Origin: a virus
Lineage: Duplodnaviria; Caudoviricetes
Direction: 5' to 3' (one strand)
Virus record (IMG/VR): IMGVR_UViG_3300047382_000771
Span: 128,001 to 192,000 of that record
DNA: 64,000 bases
Under the pieces are notes generated by a model. That model saw only the letters and a program-made list of their open reading frames with translations, was not told the DNA's origin and ran no database searches. Position 1 is the stretch's first letter. Every line of letters starts with the position of its first letter. Positions 1-35,466 of this stretch are shown one piece after another. A program made the translations under genes and the position numbers.

Positions 1-3000
1 ACTGTAGACTTAATTGTCTCTAAACTTTTTGCATTGTTATCTAGAGCTGATAATTTTAAAGCTTTCTTTTGAACTTCTATAGCTAAATTGTCGGCTTCAG
101 CTGATGCTTCGTCTGCTACAATTTTACCAAGCATATTCAAGTCAGACAACATACCCCTTCTAATGTCAGCCTCAATAGCCGCAGATTCAGCTGAAGACGC
201 CTCTTCGCCTATTTTGATAAGTTGATTCTTCATCAGCAACTGTTGCGTATCTAAAACTTCTTGATTCTTGGATGGGGCTGAAGATAGTAAACTGTTACTC
301 ATTCGAGATGACGACAATCCTTCCATTCCAGATTTTGAAGACTCAATCGCTTGCTTTCTTAAATTTTGAAATATTAATCCTTGAAATGCGAGGCTATCTT
401 GTTCTAATTTTAACCTTTTTGATGCGAACTTATTTTGAACAGATAACGTTGCGGCTTGACCCATAAGGTTTTCGGTTATCGTTTCTTGTGTCGCTAAAGT
501 TTTATTTAATTCTTTTTCTAATAATTTAGCCCCCTCAACTGTTTTAGCTTCTATTAATAATTTCTTTAAAGACTGCTTGTTTTTCTCGTCTTGCCTTTTT
601 GCCTCTAAATCTACAGACACAAGCAGTTGCGAGTATTTATCAGATGCTTCGGCTAATTTCTGTAAAGTACTTTCTTCTACAGCGAGAATGCCAGATTCTA
701 CCGCCGCAAGTGTTGCCGCCAGCTGTACCCTTGGGTCTTGCTCGTCAGCAATTTTTTGAGTTATTTCATTTAATTTTTCTTGGAATTGAGTACCCTCATC
801 GATTTCGGCTCCTTCAAATATTCTACTGACACCATTTTTTATTTCATCATCAACATTTAAATCAGTTATAACCCTAGAATTAAATTCAGTAAATTCAAAA
901 TCTGCATTAGCTGCATTTTGTAATCTTTTATTAAATGTTGAAATTGATTTAGCTAAATCATCTCCTTCTCTCTTTAAATCTGGAGACAATAAATTGGTAG
1001 TCATTATTGTTTTTGCTTGATCAAGTATGGCTATAGATAGTTCATCTTCTGCATCTGCGCGTTTTTTATTTAACGCATCAAGCTGGCTAGCTGCATCCCT
1101 GGATACTTTATTAAAAGCGGCGGTAGCATTACTCATCATGCCATACTCGCTGATTAAATCTTCAGATGCGGCAGACTCTTCTCTTCTTAACTTGTTCAAC
1201 TCTAATTGATGACCGAGGGTTATCTTTTCGTAAGACACTCTTGTTTTAGCTAAGTTAACTAGCTTGTTTAATTCTTTAGCAAATTTAGTGTCAGCCATCA
1301 TGATAGCCTTCTGACCATCAGAGATATCATTTTTAGATAAGCTGTCGGCTAATCTATTAATTAAGGCTGCAAAGCCTTTAATTTCATTATCACTTAAACC
1401 ACCCATATCGTACTCAAACTCATCAGTGGTTTTCTTTAAATTGTCTAGCATACCCTGAATCCCAACGCTACCAACCAATTCGTTAGCGTCAAAATTTAGT
1501 TCGTCTATATCCATTGATGGGTTAGCGGCAAGCTTTCTTAGTTCTGAAATGTTTTTTTGTAATGACGAATCTTGCTCTACGGCACTGGCTCCAGATTTAC
1601 CTTTTAATAAATCCTGCATAGCAAAAGCGCTCCTTGCTCCCTCTGCTTCTGATAGCCTTAAAAATTTCTCTACATTATCATCGCTATCTGCTTTGTCTAC
1701 ATTTTCTGAAAAATTAACCCTGTTTGATTCTACAGCAGTTAACATTTTAGTAACCACCAAAAGATCTTGTAATGCTTTTTTGTTTGCGGCATGAGCTTCA
1801 GTGCTTCCACCCAAAGCTTTATTAACAGCTTTTAATCCAAACTCTCCGACTTTATTCTCATCATAAAGAGCCCCCATGGAATCCATAAGTTTAGAATCAG
1901 CATCTAAGCTTTTTAATCTAAGATCATAATATTCTTGTTCTTGTTTTTGAGTTCTACCTGAGCCTAATATTTCAAGGTCCACCATTTTTTGCTGGATTTC
2001 TTCTTTAGACTTCATGGATTCAAGCGCAGCAGAAACAGTCTCTGAAGTCTTACCCAACTCCTCTATTTGTTTCCTGGCTTTAGAGGCACTACTTGAAAGC
2101 AAATCAAATATACCCTCTCCAACAAAAAACTTAAAAGCCTCATTAACAAGGGTGAAACCTGTGTACAGCTGACCTATTACTGGTAAGAACCTAGTAAATC
2201 CTCTAGCTAATGCACCTACCGACTTACCCAATAGTGGAATTTTTCCACCAGTCATCTTTGCGAGTCCACCACGAACTCCACCTCTTTGCTGGTTCCTTAA
2301 ATTTCTAGATACAGCCTCCCTCTCACCTGCATTTGCTGCAGCTTCTCTTTGCGGATTTCCCCCAAAAATATCTCCGACACTTCTTTGTTCGTCTGAACTT
2401 TGACCAAGAGCTTCCGATATTTCGGGGATTAATTCTTTTTGTTGCATGTATGCCGCAAAAACCTGCGACGCACCCATGCCTAACTCTGCTAAATTCTTAC
2501 TTGCGCCTGACGCTGTTGATGCAAATTCACCAAGGAATCCATTCGCCATAGAAATCATGGACTGGAAGAAGAATAATCTCTGCAGTCCGTTCTCTCTCCC
2601 TTTAGATTCTGCCTCTATAGCTGCCTCAGCCTTGCCAGTTTTTACAGCCAGATCATTAAATACCCTGGCTACTTTATCGCCTTCTTTTATGACCTCACTG
2701 TCACCTCCAGACCTTGCTTCAGCTTTTTGAAAAGCTCCAAACATTTCTTTCCTGGCAAGATCTGTGGCCCCCGTCAGTGCTGGATTAACAAATGCATCCT
2801 TATCTCCACCCGCTGCAGCTTTTTCAGCATGACTAATTTGGGTACTAACTTCCTCCACAGATTTAGATGCCTTCTCAAACTCTGTCTTGGTTAGCTTGTC
2901 TTTTAAAAATTGTAAACCTTTTTCTAAATCTTTAGCTCCTTCATTGATTGAAGTGATTATGGGTTCTAGGATTTTATCTTGATTAGATCCACCAAGAGGA

Positions 3001-6000
3001 GCACTAGGCCCACTAACAGGGACAATAGGCTTTGCTGCAAATTGTGAATAATTACTTTGGCTAGAATCGTATTCACCAAATTTACTCCCTCTTCTTGTAA
3101 GAGCATAGTTAGGTACCAACCCCTTTTGTGCTCCATGTTTTTTAGGGTCGATGTTCATCGACTTAGCTCTTTTAATTCCTTGGTTCACACCTAGAGGTTC
3201 GTCTCTTGTGTTTGTTACAGCTAAACCTAAAGGATTTTTTCTATCCACCAGCTGATTGCTTCTTTCTATCCTGATGGTTGAAGGTGGTACACCAGCAGCT
3301 TTTTCTCTTTTAATGGCTTGAACTAATGGGTCACTAAAATTAGGAACAATTCCTTTATTTGCTACATCATAATATTTATCTTCATCTCCCTTGAAATAAC
3401 CTCTTAGTAAATGATTACTTGTAACTCCTTCTGATATTCCTTTTCTTTGAAAATTCTTTGCCTGAAGTAAAGATTCTGTATGTTTCTTCAAGAAAGACTT
3501 CATTAACTTACTTGGCTGCTTGATTCCATCTTTCTCCATGTTACGAATAACACTTGGGTTATCCATCACAGATTTAATGTGCCTTATGTCTTCCGTGTTA
3601 GCCGATATAGAGAATGTTTCCTTATCAAGCCTAAGACCAGAAACTGGAAACTCCATTTGCATCCACTCTACAATATCCTGAAATTGTTTGTACTCATCAG
3701 GGGTGACTTTTAAATAGTTTTTAGTATCCGCCTTTAAGCCCTTCCTGGCTTTTTCAACCCTATTACTAGCAACAAAGTTAGGGACAAGACCCTTACTTGA
3801 GAACCCCGCCGCAGAATCACCTTTCCCTTTAACCCTTGTGGTCATTAAATCCTGGAAATTTACAGCTTCATCCATATCATATGGACCACCAAATGGCTTA
3901 AAAACTAAACTTGCAATATCTGCATTTTCTGGCTTAGTAAAGTGTTTGTTAATATCACTCTTAAAATTTACAAGACTATCAAAACCCATTTGTTGCTCAT
4001 CATAGCCCTCTGAGTAGCCAAAGACACCCCCAGTTTGTAGACCTTCCTGTACTCTATATTTTATTTGAGGAAACATTGAAACAATATTAGCCCAGGGTGT
4101 CGATCCCATTCCATTTCTCTGGGGAGTCAAAAATCCAGATCCCAAGGATTCGTTATCTTTTAATAATTTATTAAAGTTATTAAATGCGCCTCCTTTTAAA
4201 TCTTTATCCCCTCTGGTTGCGTGCAATATTTCGGCATGTCCCGCAGGGTATTGTCTATACTTCAAGCTGGTTCCCGTTGCAGGGTCTTCCATTTGTCGAA
4301 CAGACATGGCAAAATTTGGCACAAGCCCTTTATTTAAAACCTGCATAACCTCGCTTTCGCCAGGCAAAATTTGACGAGTGCCATTAGGGTTATAACCAAT
4401 ATCTGATTCTGGAACCATTTGTTTCATGGTCTTGTCGTAGAAATCGTATTCTTTTCTACCATATTCCATTTTATAATGGTCCAATAAAGACCTATCATTT
4501 CTTCTACCGTAAACATTCAGATATAGCCCGCCATTTTCTTCGGCCCATTTTTGTATGGCACCACTTGCCATAGCTTCTTTAAATTCCTCAACTTTAGGGT
4601 AGTGTCCTTTTTCGGGGTCAGCTCCCTTGTTTAGTATTCTCAGCATTTTCTTTTTATTGAATACATTTTTTTCTGGGACGGTTTTCTCGAGTACATGACC
4701 TTCTTCTACTGGCTTGCCTGGTCGGATTGCCCCCGCAAAATTCTTAGCAACAGTTTTTGAGGTACTGAAGGATGTCGCTCCAGAAGGTTTCTGGTTCCCA
4801 ACATCTCCAATATCCCTATAGCCAGCCATAACCCCACTTACATGAGATTTAACGAAATCTTGCACAACTCCAACTACATCTTCTGGAGTCTTTACTCCAT
4901 CAAATGATGGCATATTTTTACCAATTGTAGGTTCGTCAATCCCTTGCCTTGATTTATTTTGACCTCGATATAGAGTTAAGTTTGCAAAGTTAGGAACTAA
5001 GCCTTTTGAGAAATCATCTTCTCTTACTGTTTCTCCTGGTTTAGGTTGGTAATAATTTCCAGCTTTTTCTAAAGCCAAACTTATTTCATTAAATAAGATT
5101 CTTTCGTTTTTTATTTTTCCATCTCCACCAGCATAAGAAGTTGTAAATCCCTCAGGGTCATCTGCTTGAGCATCCTGTATTGCAGCCATATATCTATGCA
5201 TATATTTTTCTATCTCTGGAGAATTCATCTGAATCTTACCTCCAGTTCTACGCTCATAAGCGGTTTTAATAGCAGCTTTAATTTGGGACTCTGAAAAATA
5301 TCCAGTTTTTAAATTGAGGGCATTAAAATTCGGCACTAATCCCTGGGCTGTATTTACATAATCTCTATAAATACTCGGCCTAATCCAGTCAGGATTCATC
5401 TTGACCCCTAAGGAATTCATGCCTTGACTTGCGATGTCTTCGACGTCTGGGTCTGAGTTTAATCCGTAATTAATTTTATTGCCAACCATCTCGTAGCCAT
5501 CTAACCCCTTGCTATTAATAAACTCGGCAGCATGAGAAGGGAGAGCTACATCTAATATAGACGACCCACCATCCCTATCCATCATAAATTCTAACCCAGA
5601 TTTTATTGCGGGGGTGTTATTGGCTTTGGCTAGCATTTTTGTAGCTGTATGAGAAAGTCCAGACTTAGCCGCTTCTCCGTGTGTCACGCTTTTGATAACA
5701 TGCGGATTAATCCCTGTGTCGGGGTTGTATTGACCAGGACCAATATTTACATCTCCCTCTGTATTTTTTTCCCAATCAAATCTTGATGTTGGTCCGCCAG
5801 GGTCTCCCATGTAAGCCCTATCACCAAAAGTCGATTGAAAATCTTTACCCATTTTTGACGCTGTTGCTGGAAATCCAGTTCTTAATACTGTTGATGGGTC
5901 TAGCAAATCTGAGACTGGAATAGACTCAGTCTTTACTGAGCTTGTAGTACGATCAAGCACGTCTCCATTAACATATCCTCCCGAAGAAACCATCTGCCCC

Positions 6001-8999
6001 CTATGAGGTCTAAATATTTTACCAGACGCCAAAGTATATTCATTCCTTGCATTGATCGTCTTGCCATCCATATTGTAGACATCTCGCTCGGACGCGTAGT
6101 TAGGTACAAAACCAGAACTTATCCCATGCGACACAACTAAATCCTTAGCGGCTTCATCTATTAATGCTGGATTTTCTCTTAAAGTTTTTTGTAATTGGTT
6201 TTTCTGTATTAAACCTCTAACCTCAGACATGGACATACCAACAGGATTCCAAGAACCCATTCTCGCTAATTGAGCCAAACTTTCTACTAACAAGTCTTCC
6301 TCAATCTTACTGATCATGTAATTTAATTCTTTAGCTACATCATCGTTTGTTAAACCTTTTGCAGATGGATTAGGGGTAGTGTCACCAACAAAAGAATCAG
6401 CTATAGCCCCTACTTGATCCCTGAATGCGAAATTAGAATACCTTCTAATACTCTTAGATGCTATATTATTTAAATCAATTTCTCCAGCTTTTATCTCAAA
6501 AGGCACTTCTCCTGGTTTAATTGCGTCTACTACAAAATTACTTTTACCCTTCGAATTATCTATTTTATAGGAGCCATATTCATCTGTAGCTTCTAGCCCA
6601 GCACTAGATCGATAGCCATCACCTTCTCCGCTCCCCAGAAATAAAGATTCGCCTACATTCCCTTTATGATCATTATTTCCTTTATTTAAATTACTTAAAA
6701 CTTTTTTATGGTAAACTTTTGGCTTTTTAGCCATCCTTGGGACATCATCTATATATCCAAAAGGAATTTTGCTTTCAATTTCCTTAATACCTAACGCCTC
6801 TAAATACTCACCTAAGGACAAAGCAGATTTATCTCCCCCTGTAGCCTTAAAGGAAGAGCCTTTTAATTTATTAGCTTGTGTGGTAAAAGTTATATCTATA
6901 CCAGAGCCCTGTAAATCTTGATCTCCATATTCAGCTATAAACTCTTTTAATTGTTTCCTGTATTCTGAGGTTTTAAACTGTCCAGTCTCTAAACCTCTAA
7001 GCTCCATTGCCTGGGAACCAGTTGTTAAGTCGTTTTGTATGGCTGCGAAGTTTGGTACATAACCCTTGAATGCGTAAGGATCAAAACCATGTTTATTACT
7101 AAACTCTTTTTCGTATTTCTTACCAGCTCTAGAAGATCTAGGCGGCATGATTGCGGGTTGATCCATCCCTGGAAACTTTTTAACTGTTTCTGCTTTATTA
7201 TATACTACTTTCCCGACTCCAGAAATTGACATTGAAGATATACCGCCAGGTGTATACCCAGCTTCTATTGCTCCTTTTCTTTCTTTTCTTTTGGCGGATG
7301 TAGGGATGTGTCCACTCGCTCTTGTGCCCACCTCACCTGTCCCGCTACCATCTAAATCTACAAAAGAATTAGTGTTTACGGTTAAATCTGGATTAACTCC
7401 AGCTCTTAGAGCTGCGCCAGCCAAAGATGAGGCTAATTGTTTTTGCTTAATCATTGCGTTGGTTTGTGCTTCAATAACTTTGAGCATGAATTTTTCTTGA
7501 GCGAGCCTATCTCCCTCTAATTCATTTAAACCTTCTTGAATTTGCTTGTTTTGAGATAATGCACCAATGATGGAATTTTCCATTTGTACAAGTTTCTCTT
7601 TTCTACCAACAACACCTAATACATCTTTTAAACTTTGTGACGCAAACTTACCCACGTTCATAAGCATCTTACCCATTACAGCTGTAAAAGCAACTAAGCC
7701 AGGCCCACTAAGTACATTCCCTATTCCTTTTACGAATCCAGTAAAAAATGTATTACCTGCTTCTTCTCCTCCACCCAAGGCATTCTTTAGACCGTTAGCT
7801 GCACCTTCTACATTTTCTAATATACCTCCGATTGGCCCCTTAAGTGTCAAGTTTCCAATCACTTCAGCCAACTCTTCTATAGATACTGTTGTTCTTTTAG
7901 CTAGAGCGTCTAATGTTTTATTTAATTGCTCATTTTTAATGGCCGCATCGCCCATGGCATCTCCTGCTATAGCGGTTGCTCTTTCAAAGATATTTTGCTC
8001 TTTAGCTAAATCCCTCAATGCAGATTTAAATATATTAGCCTGAAATATACCTGCAGCAAATTGAGTAATATTAGATTGCTGGGATTCAGTTAAAGAATCG
8101 AAAGATTTTGCTATGTTTTGTAAAACTTTATCTGCAGGCAGTAAATTACCTTGTAAATTTTTAACCTGAACACCCATTTCTTCTAGCTGCCTGATGGACT
8201 CAGGTCTTCTTATTCTTGTGAATATTGTTTTAAGTCCATTACCAATCACAGAACCACCTCTAGCAGTGGTTTGTTGTAGCGAGGTTACAATACCAATTAA
8301 GTTATTCAACTTAACACCTGCATCAATTGCTACAGCACCCGTACGCTCCAACGCATTAATTAAATCTTCAGAACTAACCGCAAAGTTGACATCAACAGCG
8401 GCCAACTTATCAATAATGTCGGTCGTCGTGACACCGCTATCCCCAAATGCATTGACTGCTGCAGTTAAACCAGATACAGCCTCTTCAGCCTTTAAGCTTG
8501 TCAATCGAGTTAAAATTAGTGCATCATTTGTCCTTCTCAAGGTTTCCTCCATGGACAAACCCTGTCTTGAAAACTCTAATGCGGCCTCTGCCACCTGATT
8601 AAAAGACTGCCCCGTATTTTTAGCAGTATCAAACAACGCCATCCCAAAAGCTTCTATGCTTTGTTGTGATGAACCCATTATGACATTTATGTCAGCCATA
8701 ACCTTTTGGAACTTAATAGTTTCAGCAACTAACCCTTTAAAGGCATTACTGACAGCGTTAATTATTCCTACGGAAAGACCAAAAGCTATAACACGGGCAT
8801 TTGATGCTTCTAGTGACTTAGTAAATTCGTTAGCTGAAGCAGTGATTCTCCCCAAAGGCTGGGTAAAAGATTTTGAGTTTACTGAAAAATTAGCCTGCCT
8901 ACCAGATAGCCTAGACATCATTTTGTTGAATTGCATTTCAACAGAACGCATGCCTTGAGCATCTAGCTCTGGTCTTATTCCTACTCTAACTCCTGCCAT
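1..8999 (-). CDS. Tail tape measure protein (>2999 aa, 3' end beyond window) with internal motif-delimited cargo modules
   Basis: Hand translation from ATG 8999 (MAGVRVGIRPELDAQ...). Open through the N-terminal domain and all of 7.4-2.9 kb; spot checks to position 3 are in the same open frame. The N-terminal part resembles the TP901-type TMP domain (AEAALEFSRQGLSMEETLRRTNDAL...IGNGLKTIFTRI); the C-terminal part is Ala/Lys/Glu-rich helical. Confidence 0.93.
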   Translation of the reverse strand, partial: MAGVRVGIRPELDAQGMRSVEMQFNKMMSRLSGRQANFSVNSKSFTQPLGRITASANEFTKSLEASNARVIAFGLSVGIINAVSNAFKGLVAETIKFQKVMADINVIMGSSQQSIEAFGMALFDTAKNTGQSFNQVAEAALEFSRQGLSMEETLRRTNDALILTRLTSLKAEEAVSGLTAAVNAFGDSGVTTTDIIDKLAAVDVNFAVSSEDLINALERTGAVAIDAGVKLNNLIGIVTSLQQTTARGGSVIGNGLKTIFTRIRRPESIRQLEEMGVQVKNLQGNLLPADKVLQNIAKSFDSLTESQQSNITQFAAGIFQANIFKSALRDLAKEQNIFERATAIAGDAMGDAAIKNEQLNKTLDALAKRTTVSIEELAEVIGNLTLKGPIGGILENVEGAANGLKNALGGGEEAGNTFFTGFVKGIGNVLSGPGLVAFTAVMGKMLMNVGKFASQSLKDVLGVVGRKEKLVQMENSIIGALSQNKQIQEGLNELEGDRLAQEKFMLKVIEAQTNAMIKQKQLASSLAGAALRAGVNPDLTVNTNSFVDLDGSGTGEVGTRASGHIPTSAKRKERKGAIEAGYTPGGISSMSISGVGKVVYNKAETVKKFPGMDQPAIMPPRSSRAGKKYEKEFSNKHGFDPYAFKGYVPNFAAIQNDLTTGSQAMELRGLETGQFKTSEYRKQLKEFIAEYGDQDLQGSGIDITFTTQANKLKGSSFKATGGDKSALSLGEYLEALGIKEIESKIPFGYIDDVPRMAKKPKVYHKKVLSNLNKGNNDHKGNVGESLFLGSGEGDGYRSSAGLEATDEYGSYKIDNSKGKSNFVVDAIKPGEVPFEIKAGEIDLNNIASKSIRRYSNFAFRDQVGAIADSFVGDTTPNPSAKGLTNDDVAKELNYMISKIEEDLLVESLAQLARMGSWNPVGMSMSEVRGLIQKNQLQKTLRENPALIDEAAKDLVVSHGISSGFVPNYASERDVYNMDGKTINARNEYTLASGKIFRPHRGQMVSSGGYVNGDVLDRTTSSVKTESIPVSDLLDPSTVLRTGFPATASKMGKDFQSTFGDRAYMGDPGGPTSRFDWEKNTEGDVNIGPGQYNPDTGINPHVIKSVTHGEAAKSGLSHTATKMLAKANNTPAIKSGLEFMMDRDGGSSILDVALPSHAAEFINSKGLDGYEMVGNKINYGLNSDPDVEDIASQGMNSLGVKMNPDWIRPSIYRDYVNTAQGLVPNFNALNLKTGYFSESQIKAAIKTAYERRTGGKIQMNSPEIEKYMHRYMAAIQDAQADDPEGFTTSYAGGDGKIKNERILFNEISLALEKAGNYYQPKPGETVREDDFSKGLVPNFANLTLYRGQNKSRQGIDEPTIGKNMPSFDGVKTPEDVVGVVQDFVKSHVSGVMAGYRDIGDVGNQKPSGATSFSTSKTVAKNFAGAIRPGKPVEEGHVLEKTVPEKNVFNKKKMLRILNKGADPEKGHYPKVEEFKEAMASGAIQKWAEENGGLYLNVYGRRNDRSLLDHYKMEYGRKEYDFYDKTMKQMVPESDIGYNPNGTRQILPGESEVMQVLNKGLVPNFAMSVRQMEDPATGTSLKYRQYPAGHAEILHATRGDKDLKGGAFNNFNKLLKDNESLGSGFLTPQRNGMGSTPWANIVSMFPQIKYRVQEGLQTGGVFGYSEGYDEQQMGFDSLVNFKSDINKHFTKPENADIASLVFKPFGGPYDMDEAVNFQDLMTTRVKGKGDSAAGFSSKGLVPNFVASNRVEKARKGLKADTKNYLKVTPDEYKQFQDIVEWMQMEFPVSGLRLDKETFSISANTEDIRHIKSVMDNPSVIRNMEKDGIKQPSKLMKSFLKKHTESLLQAKNFQRKGISEGVTSNHLLRGYFKGDEDKYYDVANKGIVPNFSDPLVQAIKREKAAGVPPSTIRIERSNQLVDRKNPLGLAVTNTRDEPLGVNQGIKRAKSMNIDPKKHGAQKGLVPNYALTRRGSKFGEYDSSQSNYSQFAAKPIVPVSGPSAPLGGSNQDKILEPIITSINEGAKDLEKGLQFLKDKLTKTEFEKASKSVEEVSTQISHAEKAAAGGDKDAFVNPALTGATDLARKEMFGAFQKAEARSGGDSEVIKEGDKVARVFNDLAVKTGKAEAAIEAESKGRENGLQRLFFFQSMISMANGFLGEFASTASGASKNLAELGMGASQVFAAYMQQKELIPEISEALGQSSDEQRSVGDIFGGNPQREAAANAGEREAVSRNLRNQQRGGVRGGLAKMTGGKIPLLGKSVGALARGFTRFLPVIGQLYTGFTLVNEAFKFFVGEGIFDLLSSSASKARKQIEELGKTSETVSAALESMKSKEEIQQKMVDLEILGSGRTQKQEQEYYDLRLKSLDADSKLMDSMGALYDENKVGEFGLKAVNKALGGSTEAHAANKKALQDLLVVTKMLTAVESNRVNFSENVDKADSDDNVEKFLRLSEAEGARSAFAMQDLLKGKSGASAVEQDSSLQKNISELRKLAANPSMDIDELNFDANELVGSVGIQGMLDNLKKTTDEFEYDMGGLSDNEIKGFAALINRLADSLSKNDISDGQKAIMMADTKFAKELNKLVNLAKTRVSYEKITLGHQLELNKLRREESAASEDLISEYGMMSNATAAFNKVSRDAASQLDALNKKRADAEDELSIAILDQAKTIMTTNLLSPDLKREGDDLAKSISTFNKRLQNAANADFEFTEFNSRVITDLNVDDEIKNGVSRIFEGAEIDEGTQFQEKLNEITQKIADEQDPRVQLAATLAAVESGILAVEESTLQKLAEASDKYSQLLVSVDLEAKRQDEKNKQSLKKLLIEAKTVEGAKLLEKELNKTLATQETITENLMGQAATLSVQNKFASKRLKLEQDSLAFQGLIFQNLRKQAIESSKSGMEGLSSSRMSNSLLSSAPSKNQEVLDTQQLLMKNQLIKIGEEASSAESAAIEADIRRGMLSDLNMLGKIVADEASAEADNLAIEVQKKALKLSALDNNAKSLETIKST

Positions 9000-9076: not shown

Positions 9077-12000
9077 TTAAACTTGACCACCGCAATCGCT
9101 CGCAGTTCTTATGAAAGTATTACCTCCACCTAGTGAAGTTCCATTACTATGATTGGTTATTGTTAGGTTTCCGTTACTATCTGTTGTGTAATTTGATGTA
9201 TTAGATACATTTGTATCATATATAATTTCTCCTTCACTACCTGCAGCTGAAATAAACCCATTTGGGTTAATATTAGCGAACAGAGGATGGTACCCAGATG
9301 GAATATAATTTGTATTAGCCAGTATAGTTGAAATCTTATAAGCATTATTCCCAGCTGTTCTATCTATATTACCAGTAAACCTAACACCATAATAAGGTAA
9401 AATCTGGTTTACGGAACTTTGGAAAGTATTATGGTCTGTTATAATAAATAAACCCCCACCTTCGTCAAAGTAATCCAGCAAACCTTGTATAAGGCTATTC
9501 GGCAAATACGCACCACCCGTATAATTAGTCCCTAGCCATACTATTACATCGTATCCGTTAAAATATGTTTTCCATGCTGATCGCGTGGTGTGCAAATTTT
9601 GCAAATACCCACTATGAGTGCTTGCACTCTCACTACCTATAGAGGAAGCTGTAAACCCTGCAACTCTAGCAATATCGAGTACAGTATTGTGAAATACTTT
9701 TGCAGTGTAATTTCCGCCTGGTGCGTCATTGATATATAAAAGTTTTTTCTGTGACCCCTCTTCTCTTTCCACGTGGCTTATGGCATTATAAAAATAAGGA
9801 TACTGGGCTGGCACAGAAGAATCATATATAGAAACACTTCCATTTTTAATGCCCGCGCTATAAGATGCCCACTTGCTATTGTAAAATTTAGGAAAGCCTC
9901 CATCGAATACAAGCCTACCTCCAGGGCCAGATGTCTGGGTCCTGACTTGGCCAGAACCCTCCGCTATGAATAAATTATTAAATTGATCATTAGCTATAGG
10001 CCTAACCAACCCTCTTGTTTCTAGACTTCCTGTTTGTTCAGATATTGTTATTCCGCTATTCGGGGCGGCTCCTGAAATCTGCAAGTTATTATTGGAGTCT
10101 TTAGTCATAGTGTAATTGCCGCAAGGGTTAGTTACAAACTCTACAGTATTTGATGTACCCGTGACAGCTCCCGCGTTCACATTCCCTGTAGCCCTACATC
10201 TACAATAATACTTAGTGTAAGCTATTAAGTCACTAAATATAGTGGACGTTTGAAATGTGGTGAAAACTTTTGCTTCAACTAATTGATTAAAACTTGAACT
10301 CGTACTTATTTCATAAGTATAAGTAGTAGTCCCGTTGTCATTTATAGCCTGATTATCCAAAGCTGACCTAGTCCACCTAAACTCTAATTCTTTAAATGCT
10401 TGGTATGCAGTTGTGCCTACAATATTCTGTTGTCTTCCAACAAATACAAAATTAGCAGTAATTATATCGTCTGATAGTCCCACGGTAAAAGTAGTTGAAC
10501 TACTATTTGGATCACTGATTGAGCCGATTCCAGTATTACTCCAATTTGAGAATTCATAATTAGTATTTGCTGTTGCCTGAATTTGAATTGCCGATTCGTA
10601 ATAATATTGGTTAGCCCCAATAGTGGATGGAGTAGTGGTTACCCCAGAACCATTAGAGTCTCCATTAACTGTCACGGTGTAAGGCACACTATTATACACA
10701 GCACTAATAACTATATCCGAAGCAGGCATCGACAAAACAGCCTCTGGATTATACTGGTCGCTATATGTGATTCCAGATATATTACTTTCCCATCTATCGA
10801 ATGTAAAACCTCGTTCAGGAATAGCTCTAATTGTTACACTATCCCCATAGTTTGCTACAGAATTAGATGTATTTAAGGTTGTGCCATTAATATTTAAAAT
10901 TGCTTCCTCACCAGATAACCCATCAACTCTTACATTATAATTAACCATTTCGTATTTCGGGGTAATGATTGAGTCTCCAGCTCCTACAGTAAATACCGCT
11001 GGATTACTGGTGGGATTGTCTAAAGAACCTGGCCCAGATATTTCCCAACTAGAAAACTGCCATCCAATGTCAGGGGTAGCAGTAACCGTCATAGTTTGAA
11101 ATATATTATTAGGGAAAGCAGCCTTGCTCGCAACCGCAGTCCCGTTAGACCCATCAGCCACATTAACTGTGTAATCTATGGGGCTGTACACAGCTCTAAT
11201 AAAAGAGTCCGCTGGACCAACAGTTAAAACTGTCCTAGCCGAAGTTATATCGTCCAATAATCCAACTCCCTGAATTATCATCCAACTTTCAAACTTGTAT
11301 CCTGCATCGGGTACGGCTAAGATCTCTACTTTATTATCTATGTTGTATAAGCCAGAACCTAATTCTTGAAAATCTAAAGGCCTGCCTGTTGTATCAAAAC
11401 TATCAATATCGCCATCTACTGTAATTAAATAATCTATTGGGTTAATATTTGCCCTGATTAATGTGTCAGAATTATCAACCCTATAAACTGTCGAAGCATT
11501 TAATTCGTCCCCAATTTCACCATTACCATTAACTATTGACCATGATGCAAAAGAATATCCAGGTCCAGGATAAAATACTAAATTTAATACATCAAATATG
11601 TTATATATTCCACTATTATCTTGCAGCGTACCTATGTAACTATAAGGAAGATTATTGGAGTCAGTCCCCCCTGTTAATATATTTCTATCTGGATACCCAT
11701 TTACAATAAAGTCCATTTTAATATCATAATCTATTAACCCAAACACACCCTTGATCTGAGCATCAGCATTAAAAATTCTAAAATTTGTAGACGACTGCAA
11801 TGGCTCTTCTATTATCCCAAAACCAGTTTGTTCCCAACCTATGAAGTAATGCCCCCTTATGTCGTTAGCATTTAATGGGATTAAAGTGTCTTGTGTGCCG
11901 CTGACTTCTATATTTGGCTGTGGTAAAAGTGGGTGGGTGTCAAATTCAATACTTATATTATAAATACTAAAATAAATATTTCTTGTAGCTGAGATAAACC

Positions 12001-12511
12001 CATCTACATTTAAAGATTCCACGGTGAGTTCATGTTCTTGTCCTGTTGGCAAATCTAGCTCTTGGTCCACAATTAAATCATCAATAGATTTATTTATATA
12101 TTCACCATCGTTTACTTTCCATCTCCATGAAAACGCATCAGTCCCTCCTATTTCAACATCAAAACTTAATCTTCCTGGACTAAATGTTTTGTAATCAAAA
12201 TTATTAATAACAAGTTCCACATCCGCAAGGAAATACATATCTATTTGTCCAGGAGATATCCCCGCTTTATTTTTAGCAAATACTGCATAGTACCATTCAC
12301 CCCTCTCTTTTTCTTCATCTATAAAAGAGTATTCTTCTTTCGTAAGGTCTACAGTCCTATATACAAGCTCCCCCTTTTCTGCGACCTCTTCCATGTCGGT
12401 GGTTAAACCTTTAAATGGCTCAAGCCGATATCTAAAGACCACTATTTCATCAGATTCTTCCACAAGCTCTGGTTGACCAAAAGACACATTTAAATCTACT
12501 TTTTTCATCAT
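9077..12511 (-). CDS. Virion adhesin/fibre-like protein: FN3-like N-terminus, multiple InlB B-repeat-like domains, FN3, C-terminal GATase-I-like domain
   Basis: 1144 aa with repeated GY.F..W...G / I.A.Y.P motifs; C-terminal YDVIVWLG...DYFDEGGGLFIITDH. Confidence 0.65.
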   Translation of the reverse strand: MMKKVDLNVSFGQPELVEESDEIVVFRYRLEPFKGLTTDMEEVAEKGELVYRTVDLTKEEYSFIDEEKERGEWYYAVFAKNKAGISPGQIDMYFLADVELVINNFDYKTFSPGRLSFDVEIGGTDAFSWRWKVNDGEYINKSIDDLIVDQELDLPTGQEHELTVESLNVDGFISATRNIYFSIYNISIEFDTHPLLPQPNIEVSGTQDTLIPLNANDIRGHYFIGWEQTGFGIIEEPLQSSTNFRIFNADAQIKGVFGLIDYDIKMDFIVNGYPDRNILTGGTDSNNLPYSYIGTLQDNSGIYNIFDVLNLVFYPGPGYSFASWSIVNGNGEIGDELNASTVYRVDNSDTLIRANINPIDYLITVDGDIDSFDTTGRPLDFQELGSGLYNIDNKVEILAVPDAGYKFESWMIIQGVGLLDDITSARTVLTVGPADSFIRAVYSPIDYTVNVADGSNGTAVASKAAFPNNIFQTMTVTATPDIGWQFSSWEISGPGSLDNPTSNPAVFTVGAGDSIITPKYEMVNYNVRVDGLSGEEAILNINGTTLNTSNSVANYGDSVTIRAIPERGFTFDRWESNISGITYSDQYNPEAVLSMPASDIVISAVYNSVPYTVTVNGDSNGSGVTTTPSTIGANQYYYESAIQIQATANTNYEFSNWSNTGIGSISDPNSSSTTFTVGLSDDIITANFVFVGRQQNIVGTTAYQAFKELEFRWTRSALDNQAINDNGTTTYTYEISTSSSFNQLVEAKVFTTFQTSTIFSDLIAYTKYYCRCRATGNVNAGAVTGTSNTVEFVTNPCGNYTMTKDSNNNLQISGAAPNSGITISEQTGSLETRGLVRPIANDQFNNLFIAEGSGQVRTQTSGPGGRLVFDGGFPKFYNSKWASYSAGIKNGSVSIYDSSVPAQYPYFYNAISHVEREEGSQKKLLYINDAPGGNYTAKVFHNTVLDIARVAGFTASSIGSESASTHSGYLQNLHTTRSAWKTYFNGYDVIVWLGTNYTGGAYLPNSLIQGLLDYFDEGGGLFIITDHNTFQSSVNQILPYYGVRFTGNIDRTAGNNAYKISTILANTNYIPSGYHPLFANINPNGFISAAGSEGEIIYDTNVSNTSNYTTDSNGNLTITNHSNGTSLGGGNTFIRTASDCGGQV

Positions 12512-29990: not shown

Positions 29991-31094
29991 TTACAGATCA
30001 AGGACGATTCCAGTCAAGACCCTATTATCAAGGATCATACGACCTTCTTCCATAGAACCGTAGTAACCGATCTTGGACTGACGAACACTGTATTGGTCGT
30101 CTGCAAGCAAGGACATTTCTGAACCAGACTCAGCGTCAAGAGCAATAGCACGGAATAAAGATTCACGGCTACGATCAAGACCAAGTACCAATTCATCAGA
30201 AGATCCGAATGAGAAACCATGGTTAGTGTTGATCTTTCCACCTGCTGTTTCAAGAGCTGCAAAAGCTGAGTTCAACTTTTGGCCAGCGCCGAGCTCATTG
30301 ATTTCCATGATAGAAATACCATAGAATTCAGGAACTCCTGCGTTGTTGTAGATAGCGTTACGCATATCATCTGTAGCAGCGATGTCAGTGTTAGAACCAG
30401 AATGGACAGGCTGATAGGCAAGGGCACGAAGACCTTCTACCATTTCAGGACTCATAATGAGGTCAGTCACACCTTTGATGCGGCCACCCTCAGGAGAAGA
30501 ACCAGTCCAAGCTGTGTTGATTCTTTTGGCTTTAGTAAGTAACTTATTGAAATCGTCAAGATTCAATGATTTACCAGCAGCTTTAACAAGATGGTCATCA
30601 CCATTTGTTGCGGCATCGTAAAGAGCTCCAAGGATCAAAGAAGAGGAAGTACTTTCCATCTTCAAGAGAACTTCTTGAGCGATACGTGTAAATGTTTTTC
30701 CGACTACATCCATGCGGGATTTAGCAGCATAACGCTTATCAAAGTCAACAGAACTGTCGAGGCGATAAGTGTTAAACTTCATTTCAGAAACAGTAGGAGT
30801 AACAGTATTGGTTGGTAAACCACCAGGTACTGTAGTACTGTAAACTGTTACGTAGTCAGGAGCTGAAACATCATAGTAAAGGTCAAGCGGAATACTTGGG
30901 CTATCCATTTCGTTGAACTGGAAGCTAGTAAACAAGTTACTAAGAACTGGTGCTTGATTAATGACTTTGACGAGAACTGGTCCGATGAATTCTGCTAATG
31001 CCATTTGTGCTTCGTATGCAACATCTCTGTTGCGGGATGCCATAGCTTTAACAAGTTCGACTTGTTCTTCTGTGCGCTTAAGTGTAATTTTCAT
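29991..31094 (-). CDS. Major capsid protein (HK97 fold)
   Basis: 367 aa downstream of protease and decoration genes, followed by a strong terminator; ends GYYGSMEEGRMILD. Confidence 0.8.
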   Translation of the reverse strand: MKITLKRTEEQVELVKAMASRNRDVAYEAQMALAEFIGPVLVKVINQAPVLSNLFTSFQFNEMDSPSIPLDLYYDVSAPDYVTVYSTTVPGGLPTNTVTPTVSEMKFNTYRLDSSVDFDKRYAAKSRMDVVGKTFTRIAQEVLLKMESTSSSLILGALYDAATNGDDHLVKAAGKSLNLDDFNKLLTKAKRINTAWTGSSPEGGRIKGVTDLIMSPEMVEGLRALAYQPVHSGSNTDIAATDDMRNAIYNNAGVPEFYGISIMEINELGAGQKLNSAFAALETAGGKINTNHGFSFGSSDELVLGLDRSRESLFRAIALDAESGSEMSLLADDQYSVRQSKIGYYGSMEEGRMILDNRVLTGIVLDL

Positions 31095-31803: not shown

Positions 31804-33378
31804 TTAGTATTGAATTGTTATGCTATCTTCTGAGAAAGCTTGTAGAAATTTTTCTCGAAGCGATTTTTCTTCTTCAGTGCTGGAACCGTTGTTGTTAGCT
31901 AATGCTTCGTCTTCGACTTCTGCATTCTCAATCGCTTCTTCAACGATTTCTTCTTCGGAAGGTGTTTTTTCGGATGCTTCGCTTTGCAAAGATGCCAAGC
32001 GTTCTTGCACTCCAGCTTCGATTTTATCCTGAAGAGCTTTTTCAGTCTCTTCAAGGTGGGCTTTATTTTTATGTTTCCATAATACAGACATCTTTTCTTT
32101 AAAAGATGCGTAAGCCTCTTCGGAATCTAAAGATTGAATTTCATCAGCAAGTAAAGTACGGTCTTCGTCTTCAAGAGCGAAAAGCTCGTCAAGCTCGTTC
32201 ATGCGATCATTGAATAGATCGACGGCTTTCTTAGCTTCAACTTCCGACTTAATTGTGCCGAGTTCTTCTGATGTTTCTTGAAGTTGCTGTTTAATAGCCT
32301 CTAATTCCTGGGCTGTGGATTCAGCAACTTTTTCGAGTTCTTCCTTTTGTCCTAAGAGCTGGTCTTTTTCTGATTGCCATTTTTCACTACGCTCGATAAT
32401 AGCATCATGAAAAATTTTAGTCATGTTAGCAACAGCCTCTTCAGACAACTTCTTGGAAGATTTACTCTCCTCAAGAACATTTTTGAATTGGTCTAGAATT
32501 TCTTGTTCCATAATTTGTTTGTTGTGAATGTTATAAGATTGTACATTCCCTTTTTCTGTTTGGGAAATTTTTTGTTCAGTTTTTATTTCTATTTTATTGA
32601 ACTGAAAATCATCTTCTGAGGCAATTAAATCCTCAGGTATATCGTCATGAGCCATAGTGATACCTTCTACTGATGCAGCGGGATTGGCAGTAAAGCCTAT
32701 TCCTAGGGGGTAAATATCTCCTTTAATTAATCGGTAGACATTTTCTCCTTCTTCGGTTTTGCCTGAACCGCCGTAGCATTTAAGGCATTTTGTGAGTTTT
32801 TCTTTTTCTTCCGAACTTGTGACTATTTTTGCTTCAGATAAATTTTCGCTACCCACTGCGATGTCATATTCATTGAACCCAAGCTCCCAACTAGCGGAAA
32901 CTTTATGGTGAAACTCACTTGATTCATCGGTTGATTTTTCTATCAATTTTGCAAAATCGGGGTTAACTGATTTATATACAACAGCTGACAGTGCAATATT
33001 AAAAGGCTCATTAGATGCAAGGAGTTCTGATGACTCTGTAATCTGACTACTCTCATAAGAAGAAAGAGATGATCCAACTATATGACCAACAACTTTATCT
33101 CTTTGGTGCTCTATATTCGTAGGCTTATGCATGAAGTGATCCTTAATTGCAACTGCCGTTATCCCATTTATTCCATCTCCATTTTTATTAAATAAGTTAG
33201 CTACCGCAGCATTAAAAGCAACTCCGATTATATCTATATTTTTCTTAAAGTCTATGTCTTGAGGTATGAGGCTTTTTAGATCTTCTAAATTCGAAGCACT
33301 TGAAATAAAATCTTCTTCTACTTCTTGTGTCGAAATCTCACTAGCAAAGGACGCAATATACTTGAATGGTAAATTCAT
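31804..33378 (-). CDS. Prohead protease fused to coiled-coil scaffold
   Basis: KPTNIEH...VVGHI, VSASWELGF, GIGFTANPAA; C-terminal half is a Glu/Lys coiled coil. Confidence 0.75.
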   Translation of the reverse strand: MNLPFKYIASFASEISTQEVEEDFISSASNLEDLKSLIPQDIDFKKNIDIIGVAFNAAVANLFNKNGDGINGITAVAIKDHFMHKPTNIEHQRDKVVGHIVGSSLSSYESSQITESSELLASNEPFNIALSAVVYKSVNPDFAKLIEKSTDESSEFHHKVSASWELGFNEYDIAVGSENLSEAKIVTSSEEKEKLTKCLKCYGGSGKTEEGENVYRLIKGDIYPLGIGFTANPAASVEGITMAHDDIPEDLIASEDDFQFNKIEIKTEQKISQTEKGNVQSYNIHNKQIMEQEILDQFKNVLEESKSSKKLSEEAVANMTKIFHDAIIERSEKWQSEKDQLLGQKEELEKVAESTAQELEAIKQQLQETSEELGTIKSEVEAKKAVDLFNDRMNELDELFALEDEDRTLLADEIQSLDSEEAYASFKEKMSVLWKHKNKAHLEETEKALQDKIEAGVQERLASLQSEASEKTPSEEEIVEEAIENAEVEDEALANNNGSSTEEEKSLREKFLQAFSEDSITIQY

Positions 33379-33402: not shown

Positions 33403-35466
33403 TTACTTTTTACCATTTTTACTGTGATATAAAATTGCAGCAGGATAAGATACTACTTCATGTTCTACAGATATATTAAGTATTTCAGGTAATGTATCAA
33501 GTGTTTCTATTTTATTAAAATCTTGAATGCATTCCTTTAAGGTATCACTCCAAGAAGTTTTTTCAGTTGACACAATAACTGACTCCACCAAATTATCAAG
33601 TAAATCTTTTTGGTTTTTGGAGAGTCTTTTTTTATTGTAATGAGACTTCATTAATTTTTCAGCATCTTTAGACAAAGACTCTATATCATATACCACAGAC
33701 TGAATATCTTGCCTACTATAAAAATTATCAGTAGATGCAATTGAATTAGTTTTAGTATTTGTTCCTGCTGGTCTACCAGGCTCACCAGAGGGCTTTTGCT
33801 GAGGATCTTCTTTGCTAGGCTCATTTTGAAGGTCTTGGCTTTCCATCTGTGAGTCATGCTGCTCTTGCTTCATCTCTTGATCTTCTTCGGTAAGAATAGG
33901 CTGAGCTGCAGCAAGAGGAGTGTAGTAGCCTTTTCTCCTGTCTTCTACAAGTTTTTCTTGAGCACTCTTGAGTTCTGAAGGGTTGGGGTAAATACCCTGC
34001 TTGATAGCGGTCATTCCTTGCTCAGGAGTAATAATACCCATCTCAATTAATCTAGACGCAACTCTTTGTAGTTGGACCTCATCCTTAATATCTATCTCTA
34101 CAAATTTAGCTGTTGGAAAGTTTTTTAATCCAACCATTTTGCAAACCTCTTTGATTTGAGGTTGAAGAAAATCGTTAAGGAATGAATTTCTAGCTTCTTT
34201 TAATCTTTCAAGAAATATCTGAGCCTTTACCTGCGTACTTGAGTAATTTTCTTTACCCACAATAATGTTCTGCAAACCTTCCTTGATATCTTCATTTACA
34301 ATCTGGTATTTTTCAGGGCCTAAAACTTTATTTAAATCAGGTATAACGAAATCAGCTTTAGTTGTATAGTCTGCAATCAATGCCCTTCCAACACTCTCAT
34401 TTAAGAATAGTTGCTGCATTGCTTTTAAGTTGTTAGGATTAACCCCTCCTTTGTCAGGAGTGTTACCCATGGTAATTAAAAGAATTACATTTTCTACTGT
34501 TCTACTAATTGCTTGGTCAACTTTTTTTAATTCTATTTTCCAGTTAATATCATCTAGCACAGGAAAACCAAAAGGAGTCGCAAAAGGTTCGTAATCTTGT
34601 TTTTTATAAAAAGAATAAATTAATTTATCTGGGTCAAGATCAATAAGAACACCATCACTCTCGAATGAATTTTGGCTTATTTTTTCTTTTGCATCCTGAG
34701 GCAAAGAGTCGTATACTTCTTTATCGTAATCCGTTTTTGGGTTTTTTAACCTTTCGATATCGTACTCACTTAGTAGTTTTTTATATACTCCATTTTTTTC
34801 CTCGAATGTAATACTCCTGTGAGCTACAAAGTCATAAGGATTGAGGAATACATACCTCATTGGAATTTTTGTTGCAGCAGCGGTAGATTGCTCTGCGTAT
34901 ATTTTATTTAACTTAGACAAGTCCGAAGACTTAAACTTACCATCAAGCTTGTATACAAATATATTACCAGACCTATAAAACTCTCTAAAATATTGATCTT
35001 TAATTTTCCAGCCCTGAATTTTTTCGAGCCACTTGTAAATAAAGTTCTTTGATTTTTCCGATCCGCCATCTAAATATATATCCGAATTAGCAAACTCCGC
35101 CATTACATCTACAGCATTTCTAAAGATGGGTACATTAGCATATGCTTTTTGACATAACAGTATAGTATCACGAGGAGAAATATATGAATCCTTATAAGAA
35201 TAAGGTAAGTCCATATTTTTTATGTGAGAATATTTATCGCACGAAGGTTCCCTTGCATGTATAGCTCTCCTAGACCTACTTGAGTCTGCTGAAGTGGTCT
35301 GGTTTATATTCCTTGAATATGCAGCGTTACTGTAAAATGTTTCCCCTGCGAATACTGGACCAGTATTATCTGCAGCCGATGAGCTTTCTAAAAGTTGATC
35401 AATCGACTTTTCTTGACTTTTAAACTTGTTCCAGTAGTCCGACTTCTTAGTGTATTTCCTAGCCAT
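33403..35466 (-). CDS. Portal protein
   Basis: 687 aa between TerL and the protease; helical core followed by an acidic linker. Confidence 0.75.
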   Translation of the reverse strand: MARKYTKKSDYWNKFKSQEKSIDQLLESSSAADNTGPVFAGETFYSNAAYSRNINQTTSADSSRSRRAIHAREPSCDKYSHIKNMDLPYSYKDSYISPRDTILLCQKAYANVPIFRNAVDVMAEFANSDIYLDGGSEKSKNFIYKWLEKIQGWKIKDQYFREFYRSGNIFVYKLDGKFKSSDLSKLNKIYAEQSTAAATKIPMRYVFLNPYDFVAHRSITFEEKNGVYKKLLSEYDIERLKNPKTDYDKEVYDSLPQDAKEKISQNSFESDGVLIDLDPDKLIYSFYKKQDYEPFATPFGFPVLDDINWKIELKKVDQAISRTVENVILLITMGNTPDKGGVNPNNLKAMQQLFLNESVGRALIADYTTKADFVIPDLNKVLGPEKYQIVNEDIKEGLQNIIVGKENYSSTQVKAQIFLERLKEARNSFLNDFLQPQIKEVCKMVGLKNFPTAKFVEIDIKDEVQLQRVASRLIEMGIITPEQGMTAIKQGIYPNPSELKSAQEKLVEDRRKGYYTPLAAAQPILTEEDQEMKQEQHDSQMESQDLQNEPSKEDPQQKPSGEPGRPAGTNTKTNSIASTDNFYSRQDIQSVVYDIESLSKDAEKLMKSHYNKKRLSKNQKDLLDNLVESVIVSTEKTSWSDTLKECIQDFNKIETLDTLPEILNISVEHEVVSYPAAILYHSKNGKK

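Follow-up and report, generated by a model that had tools for sequence, protein, structure and literature searches.

We describe here a stretch of 64,000 nucleotides of viral DNA (hereafter the window), which comprises bases 128001-192000 of the 200,094-bp IMG/VR record IMGVR_UViG_3300047382_000771, rated complete by CheckV. At 3..8999 its minus strand carries the beginning of a giant tape measure protein (TMP) gene. The TMP belongs to a family whose members almost certainly carry a polymorphic array of modules, delimited by junctions with the short motif G-x-V-P-N-[FY]. The motif is repeated eight times in this protein, and in the relatives the modules between its copies are exchanged, with the breakpoints at the motif itself.

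The complete gene has 12,657 bp, that is, 4218 codons (genome 124343-136999, L001:4343-16999, minus strand). The window covers the first 2999 of them, as a continuous open frame with PF10145 and homologues, and the remainder lies before the window start. The length of 9 kb given in the original prediction is thus wrong, as the frame leaves the window. Residues 124-312 match PF10145 (PhageMin_Tail) with E = 2e-28 and 100 bits against the Pfam cut-off of 33.2; Pfam scans of the whole TMP and of each module at E <= 5 return, besides this match, sub-threshold noise only. In the relatives the Phage_min_tail, Phage_tail_L, Prok-JAB and Phage-tail_3 genes, which correspond to a lambda-like tail tip, stand just downstream of the TMP gene. 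Because of the PF10145 match and these neighbours, the minus-strand open reading frame (ORF) is, to judge from its sequence, the TMP of an uncultured marine lambda-like long-tailed phage of ~200 kb.

Junction motif and module shuffling

The eight exact copies of G-x-V-P-N-[FY] have their Gly at residues 646, 963, 1220, 1333, 1558, 1737, 1883 and 1960, and 0.0018 copies would be expected from the composition of the TMP. There are no copies in the other five frames of the window and none outside the TMP gene in the six-frame translation of the 200,094-bp genome, the looser pattern included. The octapeptides around the eight copies, which the original prediction had listed with their coordinates, are all exact on translation. 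The Gly-to-Gly spacings of 317, 257, 113, 225, 179, 146 and 77 residues are reproduced, and so is the degenerate SGHIPTS 83 residues before the first copy, with its Gly at residue 563. At the DNA level the copies have on average 12.9 of the 18 core bases in common, and the longest in-register stretch of exact identity measures 11 nt. Since synonymous sites vary between the copies, conservation acts at the protein level, and the original view on this point is upheld.

The seven segments between the copies (M1 to M7) had been described as mutually unrelated and globular. The first part stands, bar one case: the sole BLAST match among them below E = 0.1 is a weak match of M4 to M6 (E = 0.003). 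The second part is confirmed for the two segments that were modelled, M1 and M4, which are globular and do not look like ordinary helical TMP repeats. Pro plus Gly and aromatic residues are more frequent in the seven segments than in the long C-terminal rod.

A word-index protein search with the TMP gave 150 proteins at E <= 1e-3. Nearly all of the best 120 of these 150 matches have 2300-5800 residues and PF10145, and for several the source gives the name TP901-family tape measure protein. With V or I allowed at the third position, the motif is present in every giant relative, in 2-14 copies (median 7, 133 proteins), and the array of the 133 motif-bearing TMPs spans 191-3544 residues. The logo of 845 instances reads A-[SA]-x-G-[FLY]-[VI]-P-N-[FY]-[AS], with ~10 informative positions and background beyond. 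All these TMPs are metagenomic and come from uncultured phages; one is binned as Verrucomicrobiales, and several originate from Tara or JGI marine samples. A tblastn search with the cargo region against 50,697 phage records gives no match.

When the proteins are cut at the motif and the pieces are clustered by BLASTP at a mutual coverage of at least 70%, 111 multi-member module families and 154 singletons are obtained. Module boundaries hence coincide with the motif, as such mutual coverage would otherwise be impossible. BLAST of the uncut query against the uncut relatives gives the same picture: the matches end at a median of 4-5 residues from the motif centre versus 46 for random positions, and ~78% of the ends lie within 15 residues of the motif versus 18%. 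The frame of the protein is fixed in the relatives and consists of the N-terminal region of ~556 residues, a module c2 of ~80 residues, variable content, a module c1 of 71 residues, which is usually the last one, and the rod. Written in family numbers, the query is 0-3-26-6-5-11-27-1-28, and the relative closest to it (74% identity) is collinear with it; other relatives miss, add or reorder modules. M4, the module with a predicted ADP-ribosyltransferase (ART) fold, stands in 26 proteins next to 15 different neighbours on its upstream side and 14 on its downstream side, and 33 of the 41 families with at least 5 members have two or more different downstream neighbours. Thus, c2 and c1 are retained, and the modules between them are gained, lost and reordered, with the breakpoints at the connector. 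The families, the match ends and the neighbours all agree with the earlier proposal that the motif is a module junction and that relatives differ in module number, kind and order; the order is shuffled rather than invariant and collinear among homologous TMPs.

The original prediction left room for the motif being a recombination junction. In its strict form this means that the motif is chiefly a DNA-level signal for in-frame cassette exchange and has no role in the protein. The homology breakpoints do coincide with the motif. The hexamer variant is equally weakly tied to both neighbours (14% identical for the upstream module and 15% for the downstream one, with a baseline of 10%), so the connector belongs to neither cassette, as exchange inside the motif would give. 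However, synonymous positions vary freely, as the base counts and the 11-nt longest run given above demonstrate, while the amino acid sequence is nearly invariant over more than 840 copies in divergent phages. Microhomology may aid the exchange, yet it cannot be what selection maintains. The codon data therefore largely refute the DNA-level signal, and we regard it as extremely improbable.

When 1200 residues of the cargo were compared in a full phmmer scan with 1.84 billion representative proteins, just 27 proteins matched. Among these, 14 are not giant TMPs; they are shorter pieces, 12 of which bear the motif, and are consistent with TMP fragments. As far as these sequence searches reach, the cargo modules are known only in the context of giant TMPs. 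One N-terminally truncated relative was considered as a natural gene fission at the motif and rejected, as it starts after a 100-N scaffold gap (L003:7803-7902). Other relatives lacking PF10145 may be assembly artefacts too.

Within the window the protein is laid out as follows, all features being on the minus strand. The conserved N-terminal region (residues 1-562, 7314..8999) corresponds to module family 0, which is found in 114 relatives. It ends at the degenerate junction motif 0 (SGHIPTS, residues 562-568, 7296..7316), which is intact, as G-F-[VI]-P-N-[FY], in most relatives. Next comes the frame module c2 (residues 569-645, 7065..7295), the most conserved element of the family with a mean column identity of 59%; its C-terminal end, HGFDPYA, stands immediately ahead of motif 1. 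Junction motif 0 is decayed in the clade of the query alone (G-H-I-P-T-S here, G-h-[IN]-P-x-[ST] in close relatives), and the adjacent c2 is still highly conserved.

The variable part begins with junction motif 1 (GYVPNF, residues 646-651, 7047..7064) and module M1 (residues 652-962, 6114..7046), a member of family 3 with a confident globular model. Junction motif 2 (GFVPNY, residues 963-968, 6096..6113) separates it from M2 (residues 969-1219, 5343..6095; family 26, 5 relatives), which is followed by motif 3 (GLVPNF, residues 1220-1225, 5325..5342) and M3 (residues 1226-1332, 5004..5324; family 6, 14 relatives). M4, the ART-fold domain (residues 1339-1557, 4329..4985; family 5, 26 relatives), lies between motif 4 (GLVPNF, residues 1333-1338, 4986..5003) and motif 5 (GLVPNF, residues 1558-1563, 4311..4328). 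M5 (residues 1564-1736, 3792..4310; family 11, 10 relatives), motif 6 (GLVPNF, residues 1737-1742, 3774..3791), M6 (residues 1743-1882, 3354..3773; family 27, 5 relatives) and motif 7 (GIVPNF, residues 1883-1888, 3336..3353) lead to the second frame module, c1 or M7 (residues 1889-1959, 3123..3335), which occurs in 77 relatives. With the two flanking motifs counted in, 22 of its columns are invariant, and R, E, N, D-E-P, Q-G-I and H belong to these. After motif 8 (GLVPNY, residues 1960-1965, 3105..3122) the C-terminal ruler starts; it is low in Pro and Gly and rich in A, E, L, K and Q, and its residues 1966-2999 of 1966-4218 are inside the window (3..3104). The cargo insert of ~1400 residues is thus placed between the conserved N-terminal region and a ruler rod of ~2250 residues. 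Homology of c1 and c2 was considered and rejected, the shared part being the motif and its DP/HG lead-in alone. Profile searches of c1 and c2 against PDB sequences gave nothing meaningful.

Folds and composition of the modules

The AlphaFold2 model of M4 is a globular alpha/beta domain with pLDDT 79.5 and pTM 0.77. In an exhaustive structural comparison (VIA) 66 of 48,161 PDB representatives match it at Z >= 2. The best match is the Rhs toxin TreX (Z 6.8, rmsd 2.7, 99 residues aligned), followed by TccC3, pertussis S1, PltA and Scabin at Z 5.1-5.2. PARPs, diphtheria-type toxins, ParT, DarT, Arr and a domain of a cyanophage pre-ejectosome protein are found lower, so that nearly all of the top 50 rows are ART-fold proteins. 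Foldseek gives weak rows for M4 in PDB and BFVD, and these are ARTs again, with ART-PolyVal entries and ModB among them. The elements L-x-R-G, S-G-x-x-S and E-x-E are invariant, in the canonical R-S-E order, in 26 M4 sequences of 24-81% identity; in the query they comprise R1345, S1406/G1407/S1410 and E1548-x-E1550. We accept an ART fold for M4, with intact putative catalytic residues.

M1 is the commonest variable module, with 57 relatives. Its AlphaFold2 model (pLDDT 85, pTM 0.82) is likewise globular alpha/beta. E147 is near-invariant, and D188, E198-x-K200 and K212-S213-x-R215 are invariant; in the model these residues are located on a helix and consecutive strands. We suggest the resulting E..D..ExK..KSxR pattern as a candidate PD-(D/E)xK nuclease signature. 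No structural or sequence match of M1 to any nuclease was found. In other sub-lineages the first large modules are, by profile comparison, unrelated to M1. They nonetheless display an F-E-x-A ... D-F ... D-x-K pattern, and, judging from these patterns, nuclease-like domains of varied origin may often occupy the first large slot. A universal third core module, which could have been a built-in protease, was also considered and rejected, as family 3 (M1) has no profile similarity to the position-equivalent modules of other sub-lineages.

One module family of the relatives is a staphylococcal-type nuclease (SNase, PF00565, E = 2e-7). M6 has a sub-threshold RhoGAP-like Pfam match (E = 4.5e-4, 20.5 bits versus the cut-off of 24.5), and M2 gives a weak feature-space lead only. 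The idea that the modules are of effector type thus gains support from at least one enzyme-like module here, with the ART fold and its invariant R, S and ExE, and from the SNase nuclease in relatives.

The modules also share a constraint on their amino acid composition. The 4218-residue TMP contains no cysteine. The 695 cargo modules of the family (129,758 residues) contain 3 cysteines versus ~1,444 expected at 1.1%, the frequency in the other ORFs of the phage; the family rods contain 37 in 291,363 residues. T5 pb2 and lambda gpH also have no cysteine, and the neighbouring virion genes of this phage, except the capsid candidate, have 1-10 each. Since unrelated module families share the cysteine constraint of known ejected TMPs, the modules appear to share the TMP route and not to be cytoplasmic enzymes trimmed before assembly. 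We infer that this route leads through a narrow channel and an oxidising compartment, presumably without disulfide locking. The cysteine-free state is maybe a general, little-noted property of tape measure proteins.

The modules could alternatively be structural parts of the injection path, such as plugs, fillers of the lumen, or domains that span the periplasm or bind the wall, and their diversity would then match the different envelopes of the hosts. Indeed, TMPs form a trans-envelope conduit (PMC12617516), and the avoidance of cysteine would suit any extracellular or periplasmic role. Most modules also have no enzyme signature, and M1 has no known fold. However, the ART fold with intact catalytic residues in 26 divergent copies, together with the SNase domain, suggests intracellular targets. 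Moreover, the array span does not correlate with the rod length (r = 0.15), and free shuffling of the order is unexpected within one fitted structure. We consider the structural role quite improbable.

Connector state and proposed delivery

In the models of M1 and M4 the fold starts 2-3 residues past the upstream motif, and 2-6 residues separate its end from the downstream motif. Of the four motif copies in these models, three (both flanks of M1 and the downstream one of M4) have pLDDT below 50, and the fourth has ~73. Despite the low pLDDT, the motif positions are the most conserved columns of the alignment. The models thus describe the connector as a short linear motif between domains, outside any fold.

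Such a motif may be a cleavage site. In T5 pb2 the cut follows R1127 and separates a hydrophobic stretch from the muralytic domain; the C-terminal piece remains in the tail (PMC10038345). Lambda gpH is cleaved near the C-terminus; the enzyme and the exact site are not known for lambda, and the enzyme is likewise not known for T5 (PMC12617516). The T5 site NSFVPR|AEGG shares the F-V-P core, in register, with x-S-x-G-F-V-P-N-F. Cleavage of the connector is favoured by the information content and uniformity of the site, by its position exactly between the domains, by the T5 and lambda precedent, and by the consideration that enzymes with different targets should separate. On these grounds we give cleavage a chance just short of even.

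The main competing explanation keeps the chain intact. The motif would then be an uncleaved tether or docking element. Its partner would be the tail assembly chaperone, one of the other two chains of the TMP or the tail tube at its inner wall; binding would hold the bulky modules in register inside the lumen, and these would do their work while attached. The disorder of the motif in the monomer models is expected for a peptide that folds on binding, and its two conserved aromatic positions with the invariant Gly and Pro would fit docking as well. In addition, the motif is confined to the TMP, no protease was found, and an unbroken chain suits the role of the TMP as a ruler. On the other hand, ~20 or more bits over 7-10 residues at every junction are more typical of a polyprotein cleavage site, and junction 0 has decayed in the clade of the query while the modules next to it persist. 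An uncut chain would also keep enzymes with different cellular targets tied to each other, and the cleavage precedent of T5 and lambda speaks for a cut. We see docking as possible but on balance unlikely.

We suggest that the tail carries and ejects a junction-delimited array, which is then processed at the connector. We put this explanation as a whole at an even chance of being right. Its part concerning the modules as virion-borne ejected cargo is somewhat firmer, and we hold it to be more probable than not.

Step 1: In the virion the modules would ride in the tail as a part of the TMP.

Step 2: At infection they would exit the tail together with the TMP, before the DNA, in a translocation-competent form.

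Step 3: The delivered modules would act on the host as early effectors or counter-defence proteins. The candidates are the putative ADP-ribosyltransferase and the possible PD-(D/E)xK nuclease of this phage, and the SNase nuclease in relatives.

Step 4: The connector would most likely serve as a highly specific processing site for the separation of modules. By the register with the T5 pb2 site the cut would be placed after the Asn, and it may occur either once the tail is assembled, as it does in T5 and lambda, or following ejection. It could be made by a protease of the phage or of the host, or come about through assembly-dependent Asn self-cleavage. The latter occurs in the capsids of noda- and tetraviruses.

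A more far-reaching version, which we consider unlikely, is that every connector is cut after the invariant Asn, once the tail is assembled or upon ejection, by a very specific phage protease or by assembly-dependent self-cleavage at this residue. Up to 14 cysteine-free effectors would then be freed in the host ahead of the DNA. N-terminal Phe or Tyr is destabilising in bacteria. As the freed effectors would start with Phe or Tyr, the injected enzymes would be self-limiting. If this is true, marine long-tailed phages have a widespread, previously unrecognised multi-effector delivery route with a plug-and-play junction.

Several points weigh against delivery and cleavage. All relatives are uncultured, and the ~4 nm lumen of the tail tube can hardly accommodate three copies of folded modules of 20-35 kDa. 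The effector label is extrapolated to the modules from two or three module types, as 19 of the 20 modules chosen to represent other families lack a Pfam match. No match to the fold of M1 was found in PDB (Foldseek, VIA wide), AFDB clusters or ESM Atlas. The structural Z scores of M4 are modest, none of its 26 members has a Pfam match, and the PDB sequence-profile search returned no ART chain. Concerning the cut itself, the T5 site window ranks 2nd of 1209 under the matrix of 841 family motifs, but it scores -13.4, whereas shuffled T5 sequence reaches a mean maximum of -9.1, and hhalign aligns exactly the T5 site segment, but at E = 0.48. The likeness of the connector to the T5 site is thus suggestive, not significant, and nothing motif-like is present in lambda gpH close to where it is cleaved near the C-terminus. 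The genome has no Peptidase_S77 or S78 matches, and the ORF at 31804-33378, which had been named as the protease in the original prediction, has no Pfam or PHROG match. The sole hint for that assignment is a language-model lead, namely a 0.93 feature-space neighbour annotated S77, which has few features in common with the ORF. An NlpC/P60 search of the genome also gives no match.

Known systems and genomic context

Polymorphic toxins consist of one variable C-terminal toxin on a conserved delivery domain, with the immunity gene adjacent. The TMP array had been likened to them, and this analogy fails: the modules are internal and multiple, they are flanked on both sides by conserved TMP parts, and no small immunity-like ORF follows the gene.

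The parallel drawn with polyvalent proteins holds in part. Those are found in phages and conjugative elements, and their co-delivery with DNA and later processing into units have been proposed (Iyer, Burroughs, Anand, de Souza, Aravind 2017, PMC5512222). Like the TMP array, they combine on one giant polypeptide many unrelated conflict-type domains, including ARTs and nucleases, in a mosaic and rapidly reshuffled manner. The mosaic of unrelated domains is present in the TMPs, with seven here and more than 260 families in relatives. The hallmark domains are not: the Pfam domains MPTase, the LPD families and ART-PolyVal (PF18760) give no match in the TMP or its modules even at E <= 5, and the likeness at this level consists only of the weak structural rows of M4 to ART-PolyVal and a feature score of 0.77. 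Polyvalent proteins are also head- or conjugation-associated, and tape measure proteins are not mentioned among them (PMC5512222). A built-in zincin-like MPTase has been proposed for their processing, whereas none is detectable in the TMP, and no conserved junction motif is described for them.

T5 pb2 (pb2* and pb2C; Linares et al. 2023, PMC10038345) and lambda gpH (gpH* and gpHC) are TMPs cleaved during tail assembly, similarly to our proposal. In T5 the enzymatic domain that is cut from the ruler stays in the tail and is expelled at infection. However, T5 has a single site and a single C-terminal domain, whereas the TMP here has an array in its N-terminal half, and the residues after the Pro differ (R|A in T5, N-F in the connector). 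In actinobacterial contractile injection systems, the Sle1-type effectors, which are related to TMPs (Nagakubo et al. 2026, PMC13277306), resemble the array in having a TMP-derived scaffold in a tail-like tube and an exchangeable functional domain. They differ in having one C-terminal functional domain and in belonging to a bacterial system and not to a phage; a multi-module array or junction motif is not mentioned in the abstract. T4 Alt, an ART, is a virion-borne enzyme injected with the DNA, as are the T4 internal proteins and the MuF-linked polymorphic toxins (PMC7824862). Unlike the TMP modules, Alt and the internal proteins are separate head-packaged proteins, with a capsid-targeting sequence cut by the prohead protease, and MuF-linked toxins are single C-terminal toxins on a head protein; neither are parts of a tail ruler.

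The searchable literature, queried with the motif strings and with TMP in combination with polyvalent, cargo, effector or ART, holds no description of this layout. We therefore place the array as a variant of polyvalent effector proteins and of enzyme-bearing cleavable TMPs that is not previously described in that literature. Phages are known to send a few proteins into the host along with the DNA, and these come mostly from the head. To our knowledge, TMPs bear at most one or two wall-degrading motifs. Here, in more than 100 abundant uncultured marine phages, a long set of folded modules is built into the tail ruler, rapidly reshuffled and joined by one universal connector. Should these modules be delivered, they would represent a large unexplored reservoir of early host-takeover and counter-defence proteins; most module families have no known fold or family. 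The rule for cargo in a narrow tail would then be cysteine-free modules with connectors of ~10 residues, and the natural modular junction would be a candidate for loading foreign proteins into phage tails. The old question of TMP cleavage in T5 and lambda would also become testable on a motif that is present hundreds of times.

As to the surroundings of the gene, three co-directional ORFs follow the TMP gene in this genome, and a Prok-JAB ORF lies further along. The latter (genome 111032-111307, minus strand; 244 residues) has a Prok-JAB domain (E = 3.5e-12), which is of the MPN metallopeptidase fold, and is located ~13 kb beyond the TMP gene. It is similar to lambda gpK, except that the NlpC/P60 part is not detected in the 244-residue ORF, and it is the sole recognisable peptidase-fold gene found in the tail region. 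PHROGs and Pfam searches of the genes neighbouring the TMP give almost no matches.

On the upstream side, the gene just before the TMP (window 9077-12511, minus strand) encodes 1144 residues with four divergent InlB B-repeat (Flg_new_2) domains and also matches a virion-structural PHROG. The usual small tail-chaperone pair is absent from this position. Further upstream are candidate head genes and the large terminase subunit at 35512-37389, which is adjoined by a portal-sized ORF (33403-35466). The ORF at 31804-33378 (minus strand) stands between the latter and a capsid-sized cysteine-free ORF (29991-31094); its identity as a prohead protease or scaffold would be positional guesswork.

The N-terminal region of the TMP has hydrophobic segments at residues 70-88 and 429-447. 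A topology model with hydrophobic segments solely after the array was rejected, as the strongest ones precede it. Near the C-terminus, at residues ~3751-3760 and ~4010-4020 (approximately L001:5740-5770 and L001:4960-4990, outside the window), the TMP has two G-G ... V-P-A-M-L-T-A-G-E ... [VI]-P elements. They resemble the G-G ... G-E-x-V found beside the cleavage region of lambda gpH and T5 pb2, and in the relatives the C-terminal element has the form G-x-[VI]-P-S-M.

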